Source of the DNA: an uncultured bacterium
GTDB taxonomy: Bacteria > Armatimonadota > UBA5829 > DTLH01
Assembly (NCBI GenBank): GCA_964497515.1
Contig: CAZCCV010000009.1
Location: 643-64,642 of the forward strand
DNA length: 64,000 nucleotides
Reading direction: 5' to 3'
The translations under genes and the position numbers were made by a program. The notes beneath the pieces are model-generated. The model was not told the origin of the DNA. It did no database searches and worked only from the letters and a program-made list of their open reading frames with translations. Positions 1,409-12,808 of the stretch are shown here, piece after piece (the stretch's first letter is position 1; every line of letters begins with the position of its first letter).

Positions 1409-2443
1409 CTACATTTTCAACGCTTTTTCGGCAAGTTCGATTGCAGTGACAAATACTTCCTCGGTTTGAGTTAGATCCGTAGTATAGCCTCTCCCCGATG
1501 TCGGTTGGCGCACTACCGCAATTTCCATATCCGCTTCTTTTTTCAGTTCGACAAGCTGTGATTTGAAACGTGCAAGCTTTGCTTCTTTCTTTGCATTCTT
1601 GTCGGCCGCAACACCAGTTTTGAAACCACCCGAGGGTGGCTTCTGGACTATTTCTTTGCATCTGTCGATTAGATAAAAGAGTGGCTTTGCTACCAGAATA
1701 CAGTACGTATATGGAAACTTTTTGGATTCAACGGAATTTAGAGTGGTCTGCACCTGCACACCTATGAAATCCTCATCGGAGTCCCTGAACTTGACGAGGA
1801 GCCTGCAATCCATAGGCACAGCGCCAGATTTCGTATTAGCTAACAACATCGAATAATGAAACTCCAACTGCGGCCAACTATCAGAGAGCCTGTGAATATG
1901 CATAAGCTGATTGATTCGCATGGCCAAATGAGGAGGTTGCCAAGCAACGACTCTTCCGGCAACAATCAACGGTAAAAACAGCGTAAACCCATCGATGATC
2001 AACACTTGCAGTAGCGGAGACTCATCGGGTGAGGTCAACCCAGAGTTCGGATTCAACAATCCGGTCAACAGTCGAAAGATCATCAACCCTACTACTAACA
2101 AAGCAAACAGAAAGAGACATCCACCCAAATTGGCGAGACAAGAGTTTCGAGAAATCCCTTGAGATCGCTTACTCATTTCGAGCGCAGATTCCAGTTCTTC
2201 GTATGTGACCTCACGCCACTCTTCTTTGCTCTTGAGCTTGGGTTTGTTCGATGCGTCTTTGATGCAAAGCAACAGCGCGGCAACTAAAACGAAGACCCAG
2301 CCTACGGCAAAAGACCAATCCAATTCGAAGCCAGAGACTGACTGAATGGTTATCCCAATCACTGCAGAAGCAGCAATTAGAACCATACGCACTTCGACAG
2401 ATAATGTGTTAGCTATAAGAAACTTGGGTTTCATCTCTTTCAA
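1409..2443 (-). CDS. hypothetical polytopic membrane protein, last gene of the rSAM operon
   Basis: The 344-aa ORF has about 4 hydrophobic helices in the first ~170 residues and a soluble C-terminal half. Its TTG start at 2443 overlaps the rSAM stop (TTGA); an alternative ATG lies at 2434. I recognise no family. Confidence 0.6.
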   Translation of the reverse strand: MKEMKPKFLIANTLSVEVRMVLIAASAVIGITIQSVSGFELDWSFAVGWVFVLVAALLLCIKDASNKPKLKSKEEWREVTYEELESALEMSKRSQGISRNSCLANLGGCLFLFALLVVGLMIFRLLTGLLNPNSGLTSPDESPLLQVLIIDGFTLFLPLIVAGRVVAWQPPHLAMRINQLMHIHRLSDSWPQLEFHYSMLLANTKSGAVPMDCRLLVKFRDSDEDFIGVQVQTTLNSVESKKFPYTYCILVAKPLFYLIDRCKEIVQKPPSGGFKTGVAADKNAKKEAKLARFKSQLVELKKEADMEIAVVRQPTSGRGYTTDLTQTEEVFVTAIELAEKALKM

Positions 2444-3771
2444 CTGCGTGCTGCAACCGCAACAGCCGATTCAATCTCTTTGTAACCGATAGCATCCCAA
2501 TATATCGGGCAGGCACCAGTGCAGATGTCAAAATGCCGACAGTCGCGACAGATGCGGTGAGCATACCTTTTTCCCCGCCAATAGCGGGACTTTCTGTTAT
2601 TCCAAACGCGCTGGAAGCCATCCTTCAGGATATTACCGACGTTCTTTGACAGACTGGAACACGGCAGAACTCCGCCATCTGGTGCTATCGAGAGAAGCCC
2701 ATCGCAGGCAGCGCACGACTTCCCTCCTAATCCCATAGCAACCGGATTCACAATGCAGTAGGGCGTAGGTGAATACCATAAGAACTCGACATCTGCCTCC
2801 CAAGCAGCTCGCTTCAGTTTATCGAGTAATTCAGGCATCTCAGAGTACAAGACAGTGACTCCTGTGTCCGGAGCCGTCCCGCACGGAATAACCATATTCA
2901 TCGACAGGCGTTTCAGCCCGAGTTCTTTGACAAGTCCGACAATTTCTGCGAGATGAGGCGCATTAATCCGGTTGATAGTAGTGTTGGTATGAACGTGCAA
3001 GCCGGCGTCTTTGAGCAGCGATATTCCGCGCAGGGTTCGATCGTACGAGCCGGGAGTCTGCGTAAGGGAATCGTGTATCTCGGCATTGGCACCTTCCAGA
3101 CTCACCTGTGCACTTCTGAGTCCAGCGTTTTTGAGCTGGTCTACGAGCTCCTGCGTCAGGTTATTGCCGTTAGTGATCAGATTGACTCGCATACCGAGCT
3201 CTGTTGCGTACGCGGTCAGTTCGACCAGGTCGCTTCTCAGCGTCGGTTCCCCACCCGTCCAACTGACACTCGGCACTTCTGCATCGTAACGAATGGCATC
3301 TAGAACCTGTTTCACCTCGGCTGTAGACATTTCACTACTGAAATTTCTGTCGCTTTTGGTGCAAGTGCACCCCGCGTAGCAGAACTTACAGCTAAGGTTG
3401 CAGCGATATGTGAGCGCGATTTCAGAAAGCACCGGCAGCGAGTTGTGCGGACGTGTAAATGATGTCTCTTCCACTGCTCGACGCCCTTTTCCTTCGCCCA
3501 AGCAGCCCATCACAAGAGCGCGAAGATCGCAGAAGAAGTGAAAAACGTCGGTAAGCACCTTTTCGTCTTTGGATAGTCCCTCAGACTTTTGCTCTAATAC
3601 ATCGATCAGCGAAGAACCGGCCATCATACGCCCGAGTATTGCAAGGCCAGCGGGATTCAGCTTGTACGCCTGGTTAGGAAGCAGTATCAGCAAGCTATCC
3701 CGCTCCCGGACGTATACGTATTCCGAGATGCTTTTCACAAAATCATCAGCCCAAGATACATCCACACTCAC
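2440..3771 (-). CDS. radical SAM/SPASM domain peptide-modifying enzyme with N-terminal PqqD-like RRE
   Basis: CNLSCKFC (CX3CX2C) radical SAM motif. SPASM-type C-terminus CAACDG...LPCS...CRDCRHFDICTGAC. The N-terminal ~95 aa (YVYVRERDSLLILLPNQAYKLNPAGLAILGRMMAGSSLIDVLE) resemble an RRE. I moved the start to GTG 3771, which sits 8 nt after a GGAGGT Shine-Dalgarno and overlaps the upstream TAG by 1 nt. The track start at 3909 reads through the neighbour's repeat in the wrong frame. Confidence 0.85.
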   Translation of the reverse strand: MSVDVSWADDFVKSISEYVYVRERDSLLILLPNQAYKLNPAGLAILGRMMAGSSLIDVLEQKSEGLSKDEKVLTDVFHFFCDLRALVMGCLGEGKGRRAVEETSFTRPHNSLPVLSEIALTYRCNLSCKFCYAGCTCTKSDRNFSSEMSTAEVKQVLDAIRYDAEVPSVSWTGGEPTLRSDLVELTAYATELGMRVNLITNGNNLTQELVDQLKNAGLRSAQVSLEGANAEIHDSLTQTPGSYDRTLRGISLLKDAGLHVHTNTTINRINAPHLAEIVGLVKELGLKRLSMNMVIPCGTAPDTGVTVLYSEMPELLDKLKRAAWEADVEFLWYSPTPYCIVNPVAMGLGGKSCAACDGLLSIAPDGGVLPCSSLSKNVGNILKDGFQRVWNNRKSRYWRGKRYAHRICRDCRHFDICTGACPIYWDAIGYKEIESAVAVAARS

Positions 3772-5438
3772 TAGTGCGCACCTCCGCTCACACACGCACT
3801 GTGGCAAGCTGAATGACAGGCGCTGTGGCACGCCGAATGACACGCACTGTGGCAAGCTGAATGACAAGCATCGTGGCAAGCAGTGTGAACGTAACAGGCT
3901 GAGTGACACGCATCCGAATGAATAAACGCTGAGTAACTTAGGCCAGCGCCAAAAGCGCGCTCTCCAATAGCTTTACTGATTTCGCTCGCCCTGCCCTTGC
4001 CCTCATTAGTGAATTCTCGGTACAAATGATACGCATAGAACCTGGAATAACTGTTGCCCCAAGACGTATAAGTATCATCCAAAGAACCACCGCGTTCGAC
4101 AGCTTCGAATTGTTCCTTGATCTGTTTCTTGTAGTATTCCTTTGTGGCTTCGAGATCGCAATCCCAAGCCTTAGCCTGTACTCTGTCGGTCATCTCGCGG
4201 AAGATATCCTTGATTGTGCTATCATCCAGCAAGCCTTCGTTGTGGATGGCGTTTAGCAGCATATTCTCGTACAAGCTTTCTGCAGAGATTCCAGGAGGAT
4301 AGAGTCTTTCGACCCGTATTGGATCAAGTGAAAGAACCTTTACCAAACCTCGCCTCTCCAGACTCGCGATAATCGTACCTACGATCTTGGACAGGGAAAT
4401 ATCCAGCAGAAGAGCCGCCTCAATTGGATCGAGTTCGGCAACCTTCCCTTGCTGACGGAAGCTGGAGACTTTTATGAGCGGCGGCACCCAGTCTGCATTC
4501 TCCCATCGCACTTCATCGAGTCGACTTGCAGCCTTTGAATACGTGTTCAGTTTGCGTGAGAACAGAATAAGCACGCCTACGACTACACTGAAAACAGCCA
4601 CTGCACCCGGCAAGCCCAACGGTTTGGCAGGAGTCTCAGGCATCATCGGAGCGACTGGATCAATTGGAAGATAGGGTGCATCCGGCGGCAATGTCTGTTG
4701 CTGCCCACCCTCCCCTGAAGGTGCGTCAGTTTTCAGAGTAAAATACTTCGCGTCAATATAGCACTGCAGATTGAACTTATACTGCGGAGGAACAGCATCT
4801 TTGTGGAACCGAACAGTCATATAGTAAGCGTTTTGGCTCGGCTGCCCGTAGTAGCTGATGAGGTATTCGCGGTTGACGAACTTCTCTGTCTTAAAGCCTG
4901 TCTTGTTCAGTAAGGCTTCATCGACTACTTCGCTTGCTGTTTTGATGGGATAGTGAAGATAGAGGGTATAGTGTCCTGCTGCTTGGTCGAACTGGCACGG
5001 CGCCCAATTGAGATATGCGAGCTTCCCGTCTGGCGCATCGGTGTAGCCAAGCATTCCGGCTGCCGCCAAATCTGTGCCGTAAAGGATAACGTACGTAACC
5101 TCTCCTCTTGAAACCGCAGCACCGTTCGCTAGCACAATATCGAATTGGTTGCCCAAATCAGTGATGGAGAGCTTATACTTGCGCCCACTAGAATCGACGG
5201 CATACGATTCGTCGTAGCCGAAATGTGGATATGCTCCGCTAAAACCCTGCAAGTAGAAGCCGTGAAGATCGCCGCTAAGCACTTTGTAACGGACTTTGTA
5301 GACAATTGTCGCCTTACCGTCGACGTGCGGCGATATGTCGACCTCGACCCACTTGAGTTCTACCGAGGTCGCCCAAACTGAAACACAGGAGAGCAGCAAC
5401 AAGCTGCTCAAAATCAGCACACGACGCAAGACAGACAC
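3771..5438 (-). CDS. signal-peptide/single-TM protein (DUF2207-like N-domain) with C-terminal (CHSA)n Cys/His repeat tail
   Basis: Signal peptide MSVLRRVLILSSLLLLSCVSVWA. Beta-rich N-domain with VDGKATIVYKVRYKV..LHGFY, then a Pro-rich linker, TM helix LGLPGAVAVFSVVVGVLILFS followed by RK, and a ~250-aa helical domain. The tail reads SDACHSACYVHTACHDA(CHSA)x6CVSGGAH. GTG start at 5438. Confidence 0.8.
   Translation of the reverse strand: MSVLRRVLILSSLLLLSCVSVWATSVELKWVEVDISPHVDGKATIVYKVRYKVLSGDLHGFYLQGFSGAYPHFGYDESYAVDSSGRKYKLSITDLGNQFDIVLANGAAVSRGEVTYVILYGTDLAAAGMLGYTDAPDGKLAYLNWAPCQFDQAAGHYTLYLHYPIKTASEVVDEALLNKTGFKTEKFVNREYLISYYGQPSQNAYYMTVRFHKDAVPPQYKFNLQCYIDAKYFTLKTDAPSGEGGQQQTLPPDAPYLPIDPVAPMMPETPAKPLGLPGAVAVFSVVVGVLILFSRKLNTYSKAASRLDEVRWENADWVPPLIKVSSFRQQGKVAELDPIEAALLLDISLSKIVGTIIASLERRGLVKVLSLDPIRVERLYPPGISAESLYENMLLNAIHNEGLLDDSTIKDIFREMTDRVQAKAWDCDLEATKEYYKKQIKEQFEAVERGGSLDDTYTSWGNSYSRFYAYHLYREFTNEGKGRASEISKAIGERAFGAGLSYSAFIHSDACHSACYVHTACHDACHSACHSACHSACHSACHSACHSACVSGGAH
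3792..3908 (-). repeat. coding tandem repeat, 12-nt (CXXX) unit organised as a 24-nt super-unit
   Basis: Minus-strand units are tgtcattcagct / tgccacagtgcg / tgtcattcggcg / tgccacagcgcc / tgtcattcagct / tgccacagtgcg. They are preceded by degenerate CHSA, CYVHTA and CHDA units. Confidence 0.95.
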
Positions 5439-5447
5439 AATTAGCTT

Positions 5448-5837
5448 TTATTCCCTCGAGGACTCTGTTCTAGCTCGCAGAAGATCAGCCTGAGCAGAGA
5501 TATACTGTGCAAAATCGCTTTTTGACTGAGACCACTCGGATTCACCAGGGAATGTTGAGACTACTCCCTGCCAGATAATCTGGTAGGTACGTTCCAGGCA
5601 CGGTCGAGAGTCTCCCTTTCCAGTGAACTCAAAAGTGGCTTCGATGTTTGTCGGCCGAAACACAGGCGTCGGGCCGGAGACTATCTCCGTTGCTACTCCG
5701 AGAAAAACAACGCCTAATTCTTCCACAACATCGAGGTGCTCTCTGATAGCGCGGACGACGGACGCAACAGAAAAGTCCGCAGAAGAGAAACGCATTGTAA
5801 GCAAAGAGCCATTTATGTCTCCATAAGGCATCTGCAT
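5448..5837 (-). CDS. hypothetical soluble protein, first gene of the rSAM operon
   Basis: 129-aa ORF with an AGGAGGG Shine-Dalgarno 8 nt upstream of ATG 5837. Its stop is 9 nt before the next gene. I recognise no family. Confidence 0.6.
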   Translation of the reverse strand: MQMPYGDINGSLLTMRFSSADFSVASVVRAIREHLDVVEELGVVFLGVATEIVSGPTPVFRPTNIEATFEFTGKGDSRPCLERTYQIIWQGVVSTFPGESEWSQSKSDFAQYISAQADLLRARTESSRE

Positions 5838-6015
5838 TTTGGTTGCCCTCCTAAGCAGCGTTCATTGCAAATTCACAGTCTTATTCGTCGGCACGAAGCC
5901 CGTTTCCTGCACGTCTTCGTTTGCCGTATTGATGCAGGCCGTGTGACGAGAAAACAGTTGGAAGCACGATGAACTCGATACCAATGAGTTGTGGCATTAC
6001 TGCAACGGCATCGCG

Positions 6016-7131
6016 CTACCGAAGCACCTTCTCTGTTTCTGCGTCGAAGATATGTGTTCTCGCCATCTGCAAGACAAGCGATACATCATCACCCGGTGAA
6101 CAACCGGCAATCGGTGATTCCGAATCGATTGAAGCGACCATATCGTGATTGCCGGAGTTCAGGTACATTGTGACCGTTGCTCCCATTGGCTCGACAACAT
6201 CAACCCGGGCGGAAATGGTATTGTCTTCTGTTGGCTTCGCAACTGGGCTTAGGTCTCTATCGAAGATGTCTTCTGGTCTGATGCCGAATACTATCTGTTT
6301 GCCTGCGTAGTTTGATAGGTTCTCTGACTTCTCGGCGGTAGACCTTACAGTGAAGTGCCCTGTATTCACCAAATAGCCGTTCTCATCCTCTTCTAGTGTT
6401 GCTTGAACAAAATTCATTGCCGGACTTCCGATGAACCCTGCTACGAACAGGTTCGCTGGCTTGTTGTAGAGATTAAGAGGAGTATCTACCTGTTGGATTA
6501 CACCATCTTTCATTACGACTATGCGATCGCCCATCGTCATAGCTTCTACTTGGTCGTGTGTGACATAGATCGTTGTAATCCCGAGTCGCCTGTGGAGTTT
6601 AATCAATTCGGCGCGCGTTTGCACTCGCAGTTTTGCATCCAGGTTTGAGAGAGGTTCGTCCATAAGAAAGACTGCCGGTTCGCGCACGATAGCTCTGCCG
6701 AGCGCGACCCGCTGTCGCTGCCCGCCGGAGAGTTGCTTGGGCTTGCGATGGAGGAGTTCGGCAAGTCCCAGCAGCGCCGCGGCATCTTTTACGCGCTTTT
6801 CGATCTCCGCTTTGGGGAGTTTTTTGAGTTTCAGCGCAAACGACATATTGTCGTAGACGCTCATATGCGGGTACAGAGCGTAGTTCTGAAAAACCATCGC
6901 AATGTCGCGGTCTTTCGATGAGACGTCGTTTACGAGTTGATCACCGATGTATATCTCGCCTTCGGTAGCTTCTTCGAGACCGGCGACCATCCTGAGAGCG
7001 GTAGTCTTTCCACATCCAGAGGGACCAACAAGAACCAGAAACTCCTTGTCTTTGATCTCCAGGTTCATATTGTCGACAGCGACAACGTTCTTGAATGCTT
7101 TGGTAAGGTTCTTGAGAACCACTTGCGCCAT
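6016..7131 (-). CDS. sugar ABC transporter ATP-binding protein (MalK/UgpC/MsmX type)
   Basis: Walker A GPSGCGKTT, signature LSGGQRQR, Walker B FLMDEPLS, and a MalK-type C-terminal regulatory domain. Start set at ATG 7131 (MAQVVLKNL), which has an AGGAGG Shine-Dalgarno; the 77-aa extension in the track has no support. Confidence 0.9.
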   Translation of the reverse strand: MAQVVLKNLTKAFKNVVAVDNMNLEIKDKEFLVLVGPSGCGKTTALRMVAGLEEATEGEIYIGDQLVNDVSSKDRDIAMVFQNYALYPHMSVYDNMSFALKLKKLPKAEIEKRVKDAAALLGLAELLHRKPKQLSGGQRQRVALGRAIVREPAVFLMDEPLSNLDAKLRVQTRAELIKLHRRLGITTIYVTHDQVEAMTMGDRIVVMKDGVIQQVDTPLNLYNKPANLFVAGFIGSPAMNFVQATLEEDENGYLVNTGHFTVRSTAEKSENLSNYAGKQIVFGIRPEDIFDRDLSPVAKPTEDNTISARVDVVEPMGATVTMYLNSGNHDMVASIDSESPIAGCSPGDDVSLVLQMARTHIFDAETEKVLR

Positions 7132-7399
7132 AAGTAAGCAGCCTCCTAGTTTCGGGCCTGTCCCCATATCGCCGAAACCGCTAATAAAATGAAGTGCCCT
7201 GGGACTAGGGCTGAGCCCATTATATGGCCGAGAATTTGTGGTGTCAACGGAACAAGCTGCAAACAATGAATAGTCAGAACCTTGACTATCACAATACCGA
7301 TGATCGATGATGCTGCCGGAAATCAGCCATACTGCACATCTGATGACAATTTCACCGAGCAACCTTTCTTGACCTCGTCACAGGCGGGTAGTAGAATAT

Positions 7400-10300
7400 A
7401 TGTGTTGGTCGGCAGTCTGTGCTGCCGATAATACTATGGATGATTCAGGGTTTTGGCGTCCCCCACTCTTTTGCGCCAAAGCCCTTTTGGCGCTGTACGG
7501 ATATATGGCACTTTCAGACTTGCTGCAACTAAATAGCGATCTTCCGCAGTTTCGGAGTATAGTCGACGCTCTTGAGCAGTCAAAAGCAAGCGTGCACCTC
7601 GACGGGCTTTCGAATTCCGCAAAAGGATTTGTCCTCGGGGCACTATCTAAAGAACTCGCGCACCCGATGTTCATTCTCACCTACTCCAGCGAGCAGGCAG
7701 AGCGGCTTGCTGATGATTTTGCACAGTTTGGCATTGATGACTCCGAGCTCTATGTGCTTCCTTCGTCGGATGCGTTGATCTTTGAAGAAGGCGCACCGGA
7801 TTATGGGGCGATCGGGCACCGGCTGGCTGCAATGGACGCTATATCGAGTGGACGCCAAGTTATCGTAGTTGCTCCGATAAATGGCGCTCTCAGGCGAACT
7901 ATGCCGCGACAGATGCTGCACGATTACCGCCTAGAAGCGAGCGTCGGAGAGACTCTTGTAGTAGAAGACTTCGTGAGCCGGTTAGTCGATCTCGGCTACG
8001 AACGTGTTGATGTGTGCGAGAGCCACGGCGAGTTCAGTGTGCGCGGCGGAATAATCGACCTATATCCATCGAACGAGGTTGAACCACTCAGAATTGAGCT
8101 TTTCGGAGATGACATAGAGAGCATTCGGGCGTTCGATCCAACATCACAGCGTTCTACAGACCGCCGCAAAAGAATCCTTGCTCTGCCTGCAAGAGAGGTC
8201 GTGCTGACTGCAGCAAACGCAGATTCGGCAGCCGAGTCGATACACGCAGAGATGCAGGAGCAGATCCGCAAGTTTGAAGAAGCGGATCAGTCGGAAGAGG
8301 CGGCGCGATTGGAAGCCAAGGTAGAAGATGATATCTCCAGACTGACCAACCTTGCATACTTCGATGGAATCGAAGGCTACCTGCCTTATATTTATCCTGA
8401 AGAATACTCAATACTCGACTATCTTACGCCATCGGCTATCGTAGTATTTGACGAGCCACATCAGACTGCATCTCAGTGGGAGCAGCACGAGCAAGAGATG
8501 TTGGAAGCTCTGATAAATCGTGCCGGACGTGGGCTTCTACTGGCGTCTACAAAGAGTCAGCACGTATCAGTCGACTCTGCACTGGCAAAGCTTTCGAAAT
8601 CCTGGCCGGGACTAATTCTTACGGTTCTAGATAGACCGCTACCATACGGATTGAAGGGCACAAGGCTGCACGTTGAGTCATCACCCGTTGAAACATTCGC
8701 TGGCAAAATCGATCTCTTCGTAGACCAACTGAAAACATGGAGTGCAAACAAACTGCGCGCTGTTATAGCCACTAATCAGCACGACCGAACTGTGGAATTG
8801 CTCGGCGAACACGGCATTCCGATACGGCCTAACGAGGAGCTGACAGCCAATGCGCCATCGGGCGTATATCTGATTGCATCGCAGATGCGCTCTGGATTCA
8901 AACTGCCAGAAGCAAATCTGGTTGTAGTCTCAGATTCCGAAGTCTTTGGCATTACGCGCACTCGTCGTCCAAGAAAGACCGCCAAAGAAGGTGTGCCAAT
9001 ATCAACAATCCTCGACCTCAAAGAAGGGGATTACATAGTGCACATCTCGCACGGAATCGGTGTATACCGCGGTATCGAGCAGCTTACAGTAGAAAACGTG
9101 TCGCGGGAGTATTTGCTGCTGGAATACGCGGGTGAAGACAAACTCTATGTGCCAACCGAACAGATAGACAGAGTGCAGAAGTACATAGGTGGCGAAGGAA
9201 ACACTCCGCTGGTTCACAGGCTCGGAGGCAGTGAGTGGGTTAGAGCCACAAAGCGTGTGAAGCAGGCAGTAAGAGAGATGGCTAAGGAGCTGATTGAGCT
9301 GTATGCCTGGCGTCAGGCGCTCGGCGGTTACTCGTTCAGCCCGGATACGCCTTGGCAGCAGGAGATGGAATCGGCATTTCCTTACGAAGAGACAGCCGAC
9401 CAGATTGAGGCCATTAACGATGTGAAGCGCAATCTCGAAGAGCCCAAACCGATGGATCGACTGATATGTGGTGACGTTGGCTACGGTAAGACCGAAGTTG
9501 CCGTAAGAGCCGCTTTCAAGGTAGTAAACGATGGCAAGCAGGTCGCTGTTTTGGCTCCCACAACGGTGCTGGCACAGCAGCACTGGAACACGTTCAAAGA
9601 GCGCCTGGGCGCGTTTCCGATAGGCATAGAGATGCTCTCTCGGTTCCGCACGCGCAAGGAGTCAAAAGCGGTAGTAGAGGGCTTGGAGCTCGGCACAGTT
9701 GATATTGTTATCGGCACGCACAGACTCTTCTCGAAGGACGTCAAGTTCAAGGATCTTGGACTATTGATAGTCGACGAAGAACAGCGCTTCGGCGTCAGCC
9801 ACAAAGAGCGTCTGAAGCAGTTGAAGAAGAACGTAGATGCACTCACCCTTACAGCAACGCCGATTCCAAGGACTCTGCATATGTCGCTTGCCGGCATACG
9901 CGATATGAGCGTGATTAACGATCCACCAGAGGGCAGAACACCGATTAAGACGTTTGTGCGCGAATATGACGACGAAGTAGTCCGCGAAGCGATAATCCGC
10001 GAGATTGACCGTGGTGGACAAGTATTCTTTGTACACAACAGAGTGGAAAACATCGAACACGTTGCAGAACATATCGCAAAGCTGGTGCCGTATGCGCGCG
10101 TCGATATAGGCCACGGTCAAATGGATGAAGACGATCTGGAACGGGTTATGCTCGATTTCTACGACCGGAAGTACGATGTGTTAGTCTGCACGACGATAGT
10201 CGAAAGCGGGTTGGACATTCCAAACGTCAATACAATTGTAGTGAACAACGCAGATAAAATGGGGCTCGCGCAGCTTTATCAGCTCCGAGGGAGAGTTGGC

Positions 10301-11029
10301 CGGTCAAATAAGCAGGCATACGCCTATTTGATGTACAAAGCCGACAAGTCTCTTACCGAAGTCGCGGAGAAACGACTCGAAGCGATTCGTGAGTTCACCG
10401 ATCTGGGTTCTGGCTTCAGAATCGCGCTTAGAGATTTGGAAATCCGGGGTGCGGGGAATCTATTAGGAGCTGAACAACACGGCCAGATAGCTCAAGTAGG
10501 TTTCGACCTTTACTGCCAACTGCTATCGCAGGCGGTTTCGGAGTTGAAGGGAGAGGAAGTTCAGGAGGTTCAGCTTCCACAAGTGGATCTGCCAATCGAC
10601 GCCTACATCCCTCAAGACTATATGACCGCTGAAGCGCAGAGAATATTCTTTTACAAGAAGATGGCAGCGGCGAAGACTGAAAAGGAAGTCCGTCAGATCC
10701 AGGACGAACTGGACGACCGTTTTGGCGACCCACCCAAGCAAGTATGGAATATGCTTTCGATACTGCGTATGAGAATCAGAGCGGCTGAGGTTGGTATTTC
10801 GTCGATATCTACCGACAAGCGGCAGATAATCATTCGATTTGCCCCAGGATTCAGGTTGATTCAGGAAGTGCAGCGCGAGCTTCAGCGCACACATAAGCGT
10901 CACTGGTTCCAGGGCGATAGAGTCGCGATCAACCCGGACACGCCGAGAATTGTCAATCTGGTGGAAGATATGATTGAGATTGTGGCAAAGGGGCTTAAAA
11001 CCAGTGCGAAGAAAATGCAGGTAGCTTAA
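7400..11029 (+). CDS. mfd: transcription-repair coupling factor
   Basis: UvrB-homology N-terminus, CarD-like RID (GDYIVHISHGIG), helicase motifs GDVGYGKTEVA and DEEQRFG, and a TRG/C-terminal domain. The start is uncertain; ATG 7505 (MALSDLLQL) is a plausible alternative. Confidence 0.93.
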   Translation: MCWSAVCAADNTMDDSGFWRPPLFCAKALLALYGYMALSDLLQLNSDLPQFRSIVDALEQSKASVHLDGLSNSAKGFVLGALSKELAHPMFILTYSSEQAERLADDFAQFGIDDSELYVLPSSDALIFEEGAPDYGAIGHRLAAMDAISSGRQVIVVAPINGALRRTMPRQMLHDYRLEASVGETLVVEDFVSRLVDLGYERVDVCESHGEFSVRGGIIDLYPSNEVEPLRIELFGDDIESIRAFDPTSQRSTDRRKRILALPAREVVLTAANADSAAESIHAEMQEQIRKFEEADQSEEAARLEAKVEDDISRLTNLAYFDGIEGYLPYIYPEEYSILDYLTPSAIVVFDEPHQTASQWEQHEQEMLEALINRAGRGLLLASTKSQHVSVDSALAKLSKSWPGLILTVLDRPLPYGLKGTRLHVESSPVETFAGKIDLFVDQLKTWSANKLRAVIATNQHDRTVELLGEHGIPIRPNEELTANAPSGVYLIASQMRSGFKLPEANLVVVSDSEVFGITRTRRPRKTAKEGVPISTILDLKEGDYIVHISHGIGVYRGIEQLTVENVSREYLLLEYAGEDKLYVPTEQIDRVQKYIGGEGNTPLVHRLGGSEWVRATKRVKQAVREMAKELIELYAWRQALGGYSFSPDTPWQQEMESAFPYEETADQIEAINDVKRNLEEPKPMDRLICGDVGYGKTEVAVRAAFKVVNDGKQVAVLAPTTVLAQQHWNTFKERLGAFPIGIEMLSRFRTRKESKAVVEGLELGTVDIVIGTHRLFSKDVKFKDLGLLIVDEEQRFGVSHKERLKQLKKNVDALTLTATPIPRTLHMSLAGIRDMSVINDPPEGRTPIKTFVREYDDEVVREAIIREIDRGGQVFFVHNRVENIEHVAEHIAKLVPYARVDIGHGQMDEDDLERVMLDFYDRKYDVLVCTTIVESGLDIPNVNTIVVNNADKMGLAQLYQLRGRVGRSNKQAYAYLMYKADKSLTEVAEKRLEAIREFTDLGSGFRIALRDLEIRGAGNLLGAEQHGQIAQVGFDLYCQLLSQAVSELKGEEVQEVQLPQVDLPIDAYIPQDYMTAEAQRIFFYKKMAAAKTEKEVRQIQDELDDRFGDPPKQVWNMLSILRMRIRAAEVGISSISTDKRQIIIRFAPGFRLIQEVQRELQRTHKRHWFQGDRVAINPDTPRIVNLVEDMIEIVAKGLKTSAKKMQVA

Positions 11030-11149: not shown

Positions 11150-12808
11150 CTATCGATCGATTTCCCCCAAAACAATATCGAGCGTGCCGAGAGTTGCAAC
11201 TACGTCAGCGACCTTCCAACCACGAACCATCTGCGGCAGTGCCTGTAGTGTAATAAACGAAGGCGACCTCCACTTCAGTCGGTAAGGCTTAGACCCTCCG
11301 TCGCTTACAATGTAGACTCCTAAGTCACCTCTTGAGGATTCGATGTGGTGATAAATCTCCCCGGCAGGAACCTTAAACACTGGTGGAAGCTTATAGGTGA
11401 GTTTTCCTTCTGGCAGGCCATCGATTGCTTGCTCTATGATCTTCAGGCTCTCTCTTATTTCCTTAAGTCTTACGTGATAGCGCGCCAGATTGTCGCATTC
11501 CGGACGCACAGCAACTTCGAAATCGAAGCGATCGTAAATGGAGTATGGATCTGAGCGGCGGACATCGTAGTCCACTCCAGAGCCTCTTAGCGTCGGCCCA
11601 TTGACTCCGTAGTTCACGGCATCCGAGGCAGAGATTGGCGAGACGTCGCGCATCCGCAGGATAAATATCTCGTTATAACTGAGCAGATTGTCGTACTCTG
11701 GCAGCATATCACGCTGCTGCTTGATATATTCGCGACATTTCTCGATGAAACCGTCTGGAAGATCCCGGCTCACGCCACCCGGACGGAAGTAGTTATAGGT
11801 GAGCCTAGCACCGCAGAGCATTTCGAAGAGATCGATAATAAGTTCTCGTTCGCGGAATGCGTAAATGAACGGCGTAGTAGCGCCGAGATCGAGTCCCATC
11901 GAGCCAAAGAAGATCAAGTGGCTTGCAATCCGCTGAAGCTCCATAACGATGACCCGAATATACTCAGCGCGCTCGGAGACTTCAATGCCGGCCAGTTTCT
12001 CTATAGCCTGCACATAGACCGCATTGTTCATCATCGAAGATATGTAATCGAAGCGATCCGTAAGCGGAATGAACTGTAACCACGTACGCATTTCAGCGAG
12101 CTTTTCCATTCCGCGATGCAGATATCCAACATCGGGAATGCAGTCGACTACAGTCTCGCCATTGAGCACCAATTCCAGTCGAAGGACACCGTGAGTGCTG
12201 GGGTGCTGTGGCCCCATGCTTATCTGTATCTCCTGCGTGCGCAGCCTGCCAGCTTCATCACATATCAGAGTGCCATCCGGAGCTCTGTAGCAGACTGGCC
12301 CGGGTGGAGCAGGTTCGTCACTCTCTCCAAGCACCGACCAGTCCTCCGGAAGCCAATGCATATCATCCTCGGGGATGACATAATCCTTCCGCAACGGGTG
12401 ACCCTCCCACCCATCAGGAAGGAGAATGCGCCGCAAGTCTGGGTGATCCGTAAACTGCACTCCCAGCAGGTCGAAAATCTCCCGCTCCTGCCAGTCTGCG
12501 CCTTTCCACACCGAAAAGAGCGAGCAAATCTCAGGTGTTTCTCTGTTCAGATCGGTTTTCAAGACGACTTCTCGTCCGTTTTTGAGCGAGGAAAGGTGAT
12601 AGAGGAGCTCGATTCGATCTTGATAATCCACACCTGTAATGCTTGCGGGGTAATCGATCTGGTATTCGGGGTTATCCTTCAGGAACAGGCATATTTCGAG
12701 CAGTGACTCCGGCTTGATCTTGAGCGTAAGAACACTCTCTGCCGAATCGGTACTGATAACAGCATCTGCAAACTGTTCGCCGATTGCGGCCACTGTAGTA
12801 TCACTCAT
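11150..12808 (-). CDS. nuoCD: NADH-quinone oxidoreductase fused subunit C/D
   Basis: The N-terminal ~150 aa are NuoC-like ([14 protein letters not shown]). The rest is NuoD ([21 protein letters not shown]). The start overlaps the nuoB stop. Confidence 0.93.

Follow-up and report, generated by a model that had tools for sequence, protein, structure and literature searches.

Why should a single-pass membrane protein end in a run of cysteines at every fourth residue, and why should its gene adjoin one for a radical S-adenosylmethionine (SAM) enzyme? This question is raised by a locus in a 64,000-nt stretch of contig CAZCCV010000009.1 (assembly GCA_964497515.1), referred to here as the window, which comes from an uncultured member of the Armatimonadota. 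The gene at 3771..5438 encodes a 555-aa protein (the target protein) with a C-terminal Cys-His tail, and the adjacent gene encodes a radical SAM/SPASM enzyme. A tail paired in this way with an enzyme of its own suggests a kind of enzyme-modified membrane protein that has so far not been described. The reading that we favor, with moderate confidence, is that the tail is a built-in cytoplasmic substrate, which the adjacent enzyme would modify unit by unit and which would stay attached to the protein. The target gene, its parts, and the enzyme gene are laid out as follows.

3771..5438, minus strand: target protein, 555 aa, predicted type I membrane protein with a Cys-His repeat tail (open reading frame [ORF], GTG start)
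5367..5438, minus strand: signal-peptide-like N-terminus, residues 1-24 (MSVLRR, a hydrophobic core, then VWA/T; from the translation)
4734..5366, minus strand: predicted extracytoplasmic beta-sandwich domain, residues 25-235
4620..4733, minus strand: Pro-rich low-complexity linker, residues 236-273 (from the translation)
4557..4619, minus strand: predicted single transmembrane (TM) helix, residues 274-294, followed by R295-K296 (Kyte-Doolittle hydropathy, AlphaFold2)
3909..4556, minus strand: predicted cytoplasmic domain, residues 295-510
3774..3908, minus strand: Cys-His tail, residues 511-555 (C-H-S-A-C-Y-V-H-T-A, then (C-H-x-A)7-C-V-S-G-G-A-H)
2440..3771, minus strand: radical SAM/SPASM enzyme, about 443 aa, whose GTG start shares a base (G) with the TAG stop of the target gene

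The first-pass annotation, made from the letters alone, had described a signal peptide, a linker rich in Pro, a single TM helix with RK behind it, a segment reading LDPIEAALLLD...IIASLERRGLVKV, and a CXXX tail, and each of these is present in the 555-aa translation. The N-terminus reads MSVLRRVLILSSLLLLSCVSVWA/TS. The linker, which varies in both length and sequence among homologues, reads PPDAPYLPIDPVAPMMPETPAKP, and the TM segment reads LGLPGAVAVFSVVVGVLILFS, then RK. The tail, which reads SDACHSACYVHTACHDACHS(ACHS)5ACVSGGAH, is the sole run of Cys at every fourth residue in the window. Its DNA has a 24-nt period at 3792-3881, as detected by Tandem Repeats Finder, and the codons TGT/TGC, CAT/CAC, and TCN/AGY alternate within the array. 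A 118-aa ORF that crosses the repeat on the plus strand (3569-3925) was rejected as an alternative-frame reading of this periodic DNA (e.g., LSFSLPQCVSFGVPQR) and is not a gene.

How well the tail is conserved was assessed in a family gathered by scanning one genome per species, which yielded 62 related loci, 60 complete orthologues, and a 58-member set that was used for the family tests with hidden Markov models (HMMs). Across the 60 orthologues, the tail follows the consensus (C-H-x-A) x7-8, then C-V-S-[GS]-G-(A)-H. Within the repeat units, the Cys and the Ala are each found in 433/433 cases and the His in 430/433; position x is S, D, or G in 428/433 units and N or A in the other five. The number of Cys in the run is 8 in 44/60 members and 9 in 15/60, and the terminal His is nearly invariant, as are F505 and C511 of the target protein in the family alignment. 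Mean pairwise identity amounts to 93.6% in the tail versus about 38% in the remainder of the protein, and 56% of the conserved tail codons differ synonymously. Because this identity is kept despite the synonymous codon differences, the seemingly low-complexity tail is among the most constrained parts of the protein and, judging from these alignments, is under strong purifying selection.

The enzyme gene is equally faithful in its company. According to the first-pass annotation, the idea of a substrate tail would have to be given up if identical tails commonly lacked a neighboring radical SAM gene. This is not what we found, since a radical SAM/SPASM gene lies directly downstream in 55 of the 56 CHxA-tailed genes that have at least 1.5 kb of downstream sequence. 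The order target gene, radical SAM gene, third gene (which encodes a protein with four predicted TM helices) is kept almost everywhere, in more than 10 phyla. The closest homologues are in Armatimonadota metagenome-assembled genomes (MAGs), with 52-61% identity; in a word-indexed protein database, the same five homologues were retrieved with the full protein or with a 58-sequence tail-less profile. Other loci belong to the Planctomycetota (including Kuenenia), Omnitrophota, Elusimicrobia, Acidobacteriota/Aminicenantes, Nitrospiraceae (Nitrospirota), and Spirochaetes (Spirochaetota), and further ones to WOR-3, Hydrogenedentota, Firestonebacteria, Fischerbacteria, and one Clostridia MAG. The family therefore spans more than 10 phyla, most of them uncultivated.

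Nature also provides two short forms of the target protein, at L002 (1528-2619) and L005 (1072-2058), which end right after the FRQxGK motif and have neither cytoplasmic domain nor tail. L002 is the only one of the two with downstream sequence, and it has a tetratricopeptide repeat (TPR) gene there and no radical SAM gene. Since cytoplasmic domain, tail, and radical SAM gene are missing together from L002, the three come and go together, in a sample of one. Two other loci have unusual surroundings. At L056 (913-4346, Aminicenantes), a perfect CHSA tail is followed directly downstream by a 605-aa homocysteine-methyltransferase/MetH-like gene. At L015 (10870-12900, Armatimonadota-like), the radical SAM gene is truncated at about residue 400, and two extra ORFs, of 268 and 227 aa, separate it from the gene for the four-TM protein, which looks like a mobile-element insertion.

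In the window, target and enzyme genes are flanked by two genes on the same strand.

5448..5837, minus strand: 129-aa soluble protein without a family match (ORF; ends 9 nt before the target start)
1409..2443, minus strand: third gene, 344 aa (four TM helices predicted, plus a soluble domain of about 180 aa at the C-terminus)

The start of the third gene overlaps the radical SAM stop by 4 nt. A single translationally coupled operon, running from 5837 to 1409 on the minus strand, is the best explanation for the four genes. Because target and enzyme genes are so tightly coupled in translation and remain neighbors in 55/56 loci, their products are likely to form a direct enzyme-substrate pair.

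The enzyme is a full radical SAM/SPASM protein. It scores 103.4 bits against Radical_SAM PF04055 (cutoff 29.5) and 38.8 bits against SPASM PF13186 (cutoff 21.5), the CX3CX2C and CX2CX5CX3C motifs are found in 56/56 of its orthologues, and its gene is the only large ORF in the window with a CX3CX2C motif. A longer, 489-aa reading of the gene (2440-3909) was discarded, as its first 46 residues are the repeat in another frame and the orthologues start at or just after the target stop. Among solved structures, the closest are PqqE, SkfB, BlsE, and CteB, and the nearest relatives PqqE, SkfB, and CteB are peptide-modifying enzymes. At the family level, the enzyme stays below the curated cutoff of all 25 NCBIfam families listed, its best score being 163.5 bits against AhbD, for which the cutoff is 500. 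[quoted passage not shown]

Is this pairing restricted to Cys-His tails? A profile of the cytoplasmic domain only, run against 1.84 billion representatives, matched 331 proteins at E<=1e-3. Beside proteins with CHxA tails, many of the matches end in ...GGGGCACACACAGCACACAGGGR, and a few have ACVHDACHSACVH-type tails. The first of these forms defines a sister family with tails of the form ...CACACACAGCACACAGGGR, of which a metagenome scan gave at least 245 confirmed relatives among the 600 pattern matches listed. These CA-tail proteins are built like the target protein: a signal-peptide-like N-terminus leads into a beta-rich ectodomain, and a single TM helix connects the latter with a cytoplasmic domain. 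This cytoplasmic domain is homologous to that of the target protein (profile E-values of 1e-13 to 1e-9) and carries the motif GLTAVEAAxLLExPL...KKG. We inspected 80 metagenomic CA-tail loci (L068-L147), 52 of which have enough sequence, and in 48 of these 52 a homologous radical SAM/SPASM gene, whose product is 33-37% identical to the window enzyme, lies downstream of the CA-tail gene. The third, four-TM gene is absent from the CA-tail family. The first-pass annotation had raised the question whether tail type, Gly-rich or CXXX, tracks with the radical SAM gene. It does not, since relatives with Gly-rich/CACACA tails are likewise accompanied by a homologous radical SAM gene; as both periodic Cys tails come with the enzyme, radical SAM-linked and radical SAM-free proteins cannot be told apart by tail type.

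Individual CA-tail loci show some variation in gene content. In L072, the one CA-tail locus that we read from end to end, the CA-tail target (5941-7575) and the radical SAM gene (7895-9226) are preceded at 5516-5947 by a gene for a small membrane protein with a C-terminal zinc ribbon (CEKCG...CPYCG), unlike the 129-aa soluble protein of the window, and a similar ORF with a C-terminal CPYC is found upstream of the CA-tail target in L138. L107 contains tandem CA-tail paralogues (4055-5905 and 5950-7656) that have no radical SAM gene within 6 kb downstream and an ion-channel-like gene instead.

The sister family bears directly on what the enzyme might do, because its CACACA tail contains no His. 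Could the Cys-His tail simply bind Zn, Cu(I), Ni, or Fe-S without being modified, through Cys-His pairs set four residues apart, while the radical SAM enzyme has another task, such as the loading or maturation of a metal or cofactor site or work on some other substrate? Cys and His are indeed invariant, at fixed spacing and in near-fixed number, the terminal His is almost always kept, and one member weakly matches the Ni-binding HpnL model (E 0.015). Moreover, in copper storage proteins of the Csp type, Cu(I) is bound by helical CXXXC motifs. Yet the CA-tail family keeps the enzyme without having the His, which disfavors any His-dependent explanation of the enzyme's role. Translational coupling and the 55/56 synteny likewise favor an enzyme-substrate pair over a metal module, and the characterized SPASM enzymes that adjoin Cys-rich repeats are maturases of those repeats (PMC8326336). 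A purely metal-binding tail is thus unlikely in our view, although metal binding and modification of the tail are not mutually exclusive.

The same comparison applies to the idea that the overlapping C-x3-C-H motifs are sites at which an AhbD/NirJ-like radical SAM enzyme installs or processes a covalently attached cofactor, be it a tetrapyrrole or another one. C-H-S-A-C-H does read as CX3CH, which is a rare variant of the CXXCH heme c motif. Furthermore, the best NCBIfam matches of both the window enzyme and the CA-family enzyme, which is also below all curated cutoffs, are AhbD, NirJ, and NirJ2. However, the AhbD/NirJ matches reach 130-165 bits against cutoffs of 500-650, and PqqE-type and other maturases score similarly. 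The CA-tail family has the same type of enzyme and no His, and in the Cys-His tail it is Val, not His, that comes after the last Cys. c-type hemes are attached to CXXCH outside the cytoplasm, whereas the tail offers only CX3CH spacing and is predicted to be cytoplasmic. We know of no precedent for radical SAM-dependent heme attachment, or for multiheme sites on the cytoplasmic face, and we find this explanation hardly credible.

For a cytosolic enzyme to reach the tail, the latter must be on the inside of the membrane, where the first-pass annotation had placed it by the positive-inside rule. Heuristics agree with this placement. The N-terminus of the target protein has a hydrophobic peak at residues 8-26 (Kyte-Doolittle 2.03), and 56/60 members have a signal-peptide-like N-terminus, in which a basic n-region and a hydrophobic core precede a small-x-small site. 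A lipoprotein reading of this N-terminus was rejected, LLSC being a poor lipobox with an unconserved Cys. The dominant hydrophobic peak is at residues 274-292 (Kyte-Doolittle 2.51), and K/R directly follow the TM segment in nearly all of the 60 homologues. In the target protein, there is one K/R in the 15 residues before the helix and four in the 15 after it. By these heuristics, the protein has the features of a type I (N-out, C-in) single-pass protein, and we consider an N-out/C-in topology with a cytoplasmic tail the best reading, and a highly probable one.

Some observations speak against this placement. The positive-inside bias is modest across the family (mean K+R of 2.07 before the helix vs. 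3.0 after it) and is reversed in 13/60 members, and the target protein has a second hydrophobic stretch at residues 342-360, with a Kyte-Doolittle value of 1.78. If this stretch were a second TM helix, or if the N-terminus were not a cleaved signal peptide, the tail would be extracytoplasmic, like the tails of TIGR04222 proteins, to which the family is weakly similar and which published models put in the periplasm (PMC12452194). However, the stretch has conserved E340, D346, and P348 with a flanking MERKG, it is split by AlphaFold2 into helices of 7 and 14 residues, and it lies inside a conserved helix-helix-hairpin unit. Since these conserved residues and the two short helices belong to that unit, residues 342-360 are unlikely to span the membrane. 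In addition, the radical SAM enzyme has no signal peptide or TM segment (maximum Kyte-Doolittle 1.41) and needs SAM and a cytoplasmic reductant, and 10 reduced Cys are more plausible in the cytoplasm. An extracytoplasmic tail is therefore very improbable, and a cytoplasmic tail remains our preferred placement.

As for the folded parts of the target protein, we produced an AlphaFold2 model from a 6-sequence alignment, with a mean predicted local distance difference test (pLDDT) score of 59. In agreement with the N-terminal beta-rich domain claimed earlier, residues 25-229 are modeled as beta strands forming a beta-sandwich, with a pLDDT of about 70-88. The linker is disordered (pLDDT <50), and a long helix at 277-309 covers the hydrophobic segment. 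A helix-helix-beta-hairpin unit follows at 338-378, with more helices up to about residue 494. The tail is modeled as helical at a pLDDT of about 30, which is not informative. A helical domain had been predicted after the membrane helix, and this domain is indeed mostly helical in the model, but its size is about 215 aa (295-510) rather than about 250 aa. It contains the motif W-x4-W-x-PP-I-x-V-x2-[FY]-R-x2-GK, the helix-helix-hairpin (336-378), a helical region with a WDCDLEATK motif, and a pretail motif, [YF]-x2-F-x2-S.

The first-pass annotation was reminded by this protein of DUF2207 proteins. Like the target protein, these have a membrane anchor behind an extracytoplasmic beta domain at the N-terminus, and the resemblance stands for one half of the protein only; apart from details of this analogy, the first-pass interpretation agreed with the tests made here. 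The window protein itself has no Pfam match to the DUF2207 N-domain PF09972 even at E<=10 (gathering score 24.4 bits). Among its relatives, PF09972 matches 15/58 family members at E<=0.01 (best 1.2e-7), and P0005 scores 28.2 bits, above the gathering score, with P0001 at 24.1 and P0002 at 19.8. On the strength of these 15 matches and of P0005, the ectodomain is best classed as a divergent form of the DUF2207 N-domain; as the window protein is unmatched but its relatives match, this homology is transitive and holds at the family level only. The fold of the ectodomain resembles those of ribophorin-I/Ost1 and of the M1-aminopeptidase N-domain. The C-terminal half does not follow suit, with no match to DUF2207_C PF20990 for the target protein or its C-terminal half at E<=10 and in 0/58 members. 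The segment that had been called winged-helix-like is therefore not DUF2207_C. It weakly resembles TIGR04222, which matches 6/58 members at E<=0.1 (best 7.5e-4) and gives 24.5 bits with the CA-tail protein P0084, the curated cutoff being 43; the window protein has no TIGR04222 match.

The TIGR04222 similarity leads to the closest published concept. Subsets of TIGR04222 membrane proteins with Cys-rich Ser/Gly tails have been proposed as MNIO substrates (Leprevost et al. 2025, PMC12452194). As in our system, these are true membrane proteins rather than short peptides, with a conserved domain and a Cys-rich low-complexity tail, whose genes are linked to a RiPP-type maturase. The partner here is a radical SAM/SPASM enzyme, not an MNIO (DUF692). 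Moreover, their proteins have no signal peptide and their irregular, Ser/Gly-rich tails are predicted to be periplasmic (PMC12452194), whereas the tail described here is strictly periodic, is predicted to be cytoplasmic, and has a signal peptide, an ectodomain, and a single TM helix ahead of it.

A second relative is TIGR04117, annotated as "Cys-Xaa-Xaa-Xaa repeat radical SAM target," together with PF27846 (Syntrophobacter paralogues), in which Cys also occurs at every fourth C-terminal residue next to a radical SAM enzyme. The target protein has the same traits, with 8 Cys at period 4 near its C-terminus and an adjoining radical SAM gene. Its tail alone scores 15.1 bits against TIGR04117 (E 0.019) versus a cutoff of 50, and the window tail and those of three homologues score 10-15 bits. 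In the family, TIGR04117 matches 17/58 members at E<=0.1 (best 4.5e-5), the tail aligning with model positions 47-97 of 98, and the precomputed PF27846 matches on P0001 and P0002 are faint. TIGR04117 proteins are small, about 98 aa judging by the 98-position model, whereas the repeat described here forms the tail of a type I membrane protein of 555 aa; in it, each Cys is preceded by an invariant Ala and followed by an invariant His, and the copy number is near-fixed. We found no published chemistry for the TIGR04117/PF27846 family. The literature that we searched contained no link between DUF2207 and radical SAM enzymes, no paper on CXXX-repeat radical SAM systems, and no mention of the motif, and, judging from the family searches, no curated family claims the target protein or its relatives. 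Two kinds of system that are known separately are combined here, Cys-repeat targets paired with a radical SAM/SPASM maturase and Cys-tailed membrane proteins that have a maturase of their own. What is new is an uncurated, broadly distributed family with an unusually rigid repeat, in which the apparent substrate is a membrane protein.

What reaction might the enzyme catalyze? By analogy, it is probably centered on cysteine. In the ACGX system, with the curated family TIGR04340 (rSAM_ACGX), a four-residue Ala-Cys-x-x repeat likewise has a SPASM radical SAM enzyme as its partner. The targets in that system are short peptides that have Gly rather than His after the Cys, and the window enzyme scores 105.7 bits against TIGR04340, far below the cutoff of 400. 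The best precedent would be thioether cross-links of the sactipeptide/ranthipeptide/QhpD type, in which a SPASM enzyme acts on Cys-rich, often repeated motifs; the systems compared were PapB/freyrasin, CteB/SCIFF, TrnC/D of thuricin CD, and QhpD-QhpC. SPASM enzymes make Cys thioethers on such repeats, as in freyrasin with its six Cys-Asp bridges, and further precedents include thuricin CD, with Cys at i, i+4, and i+8, and SCIFF (PMC8326336). QhpD provides a case of thioether formation on a protein subunit in the cytoplasm (PMC8326336). The system described here departs from these precedents in several ways. The window enzyme belongs to none of these curated families (e.g., PapB, 82 bits vs. 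a cutoff of 340, and SkfB, 88 vs. 300), its putative substrate is the tail of a membrane protein, no fixed position of the repeat holds an Asp, Asn, or Thr as acceptor (position 3 varies among S, D, and G), and the invariant tail His has no role in the thioether systems.

Together, these findings can be assembled into a mechanism, in which gene order and overlaps, domain architecture, conservation, synteny, and enzyme class are observed, and topology, the role of the tail as substrate, the mode of recognition, chemistry, and physiological role are inferred. The beta-sandwich would be outside the cell and, after one crossing of the membrane, the last ~260 residues would be in the cytoplasm. The final 45 residues would be a built-in, RiPP-like "core," in which C-V-S-G-G closes a series of seven or eight C-H-x-A units. 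Acting in the cytoplasm, the SPASM enzyme would recognize the conserved pretail segment ([YF]-x2-F-x2-S), probably via its N-terminal PqqD-like domain, and would then modify the repeat units successively. After modification, the tail would remain on the membrane protein and make up a structured module in the cytoplasm, which might also bind metal.

Several observations have to be weighed against this mechanism. One CHxA-tailed gene (L056) has no radical SAM gene within 8 kb, and neither do 4/52 CA-tail loci within 6-8 kb. Cys and Ala are the only residues invariant in both tail types, which fits no characterized donor-acceptor motif, and the top NCBIfam matches of the enzyme are the tetrapyrrole-modifying AhbD and NirJ rather than thioether synthases, all of them far below cutoffs. 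The PqqD-like match of the enzyme's N-terminus is not significant (PF05402, E=0.12, 13.1 bits vs. a cutoff of 23.4), and a profile search of PDB sequences with this N-terminus retrieved TfuB1 only at E 0.45. Finally, AlphaFold2 confidence is low beyond the ectodomain of the target protein, the tail being at a pLDDT of about 30 as reported above.

Would the modified tail have to stay on the protein? It could instead be a RiPP core that is cleaved and released or exported, in which case the 510-residue membrane protein would be an oversized leader or scaffold and the four-TM protein encoded by the third gene an exporter or protease. The repeat does sit at the extreme C-terminus behind [YF]-x2-F-x2-S, in the usual leader-core order, the membrane protein of the third gene is co-conserved, and large leader proteins exist, such as NHLP leaders and borosin or BURP-type fusions. 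However, no recognizable protease, ABC exporter, or immunity gene was found in the operon by Pfam, NCBIfam, and PDB sequence searches, and the third gene is missing from the CA-tail family. The tail is near-identical in more than 10 phyla, whereas secreted bioactive cores usually diversify, and the ectodomain and TM helix are conserved along with it. A released product is accordingly quite improbable, and we retain a tail that is modified in place.

To our knowledge, the radical SAM/SPASM maturases studied so far act, with few exceptions, on peptides that are short and secreted. The apparent substrate here is of another sort, a tail by which a conserved membrane protein would extend into the cytoplasm. 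That the theme is general is shown by the sister family, which combines another periodic Cys tail with a homologous enzyme. Considered together with the MNIO/TIGR04222 proposal, a recurring design may be discerned, in which a membrane protein has a conserved domain, a Cys-rich tail, and a dedicated maturase. We can also picture, as a tentative and rather doubtful extension, that target and CACACA families form a new, phylogenetically broad class of integral membrane proteins with posttranslational modification, in which a dedicated radical SAM/SPASM enzyme turns a periodic Cys tail, of fixed length and on the cytoplasmic side, into a new covalent structure, such as a cross-link ladder or a linear metal/cofactor array. 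Such a structure would link a ribophorin-I-like sensor outside the cell with a redox or metal signal inside it, and its chemistry would be beyond the thioether, C-C, and C-O types described. In practical terms, the locus offers a well-defined target of ~45 residues with its partner enzyme for finding new radical SAM chemistry, and it may give a first functional handle on DUF2207-like and TIGR04222-like proteins.

The 129-aa upstream protein has no Pfam or NCBIfam match. Its gene is directly upstream of the target gene in 21 related loci, including L002 and L005, where the short forms thus keep it, and is absent from L001 and from most non-Armatimonadota loci. The third gene is kept downstream of the radical SAM gene in about 50 loci. 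Its product has no Pfam, NCBIfam, or PDB sequence match and is 100% identical to an NCBI protein database entry (P0155); its AlphaFold2 model, made from two sequences, has a pLDDT of 44 and is unusable. A promoter/terminator scan gave no better results than shuffled sequence. The flanking genes look like ordinary housekeeping genes. The gene at 176-1360 on the plus strand, convergent with the operon, encodes an MGH1/GH63-like glycoside hydrolase according to Pfam. As read by eye from the translations, the gene at 6016-7362 (minus strand) encodes a MalK/UgpC-like ABC ATPase with a dubious N-terminal extension, that at 7400-11029 (plus strand) Mfd, and that at 11150-12808 (minus strand) a fused NuoC-NuoD.

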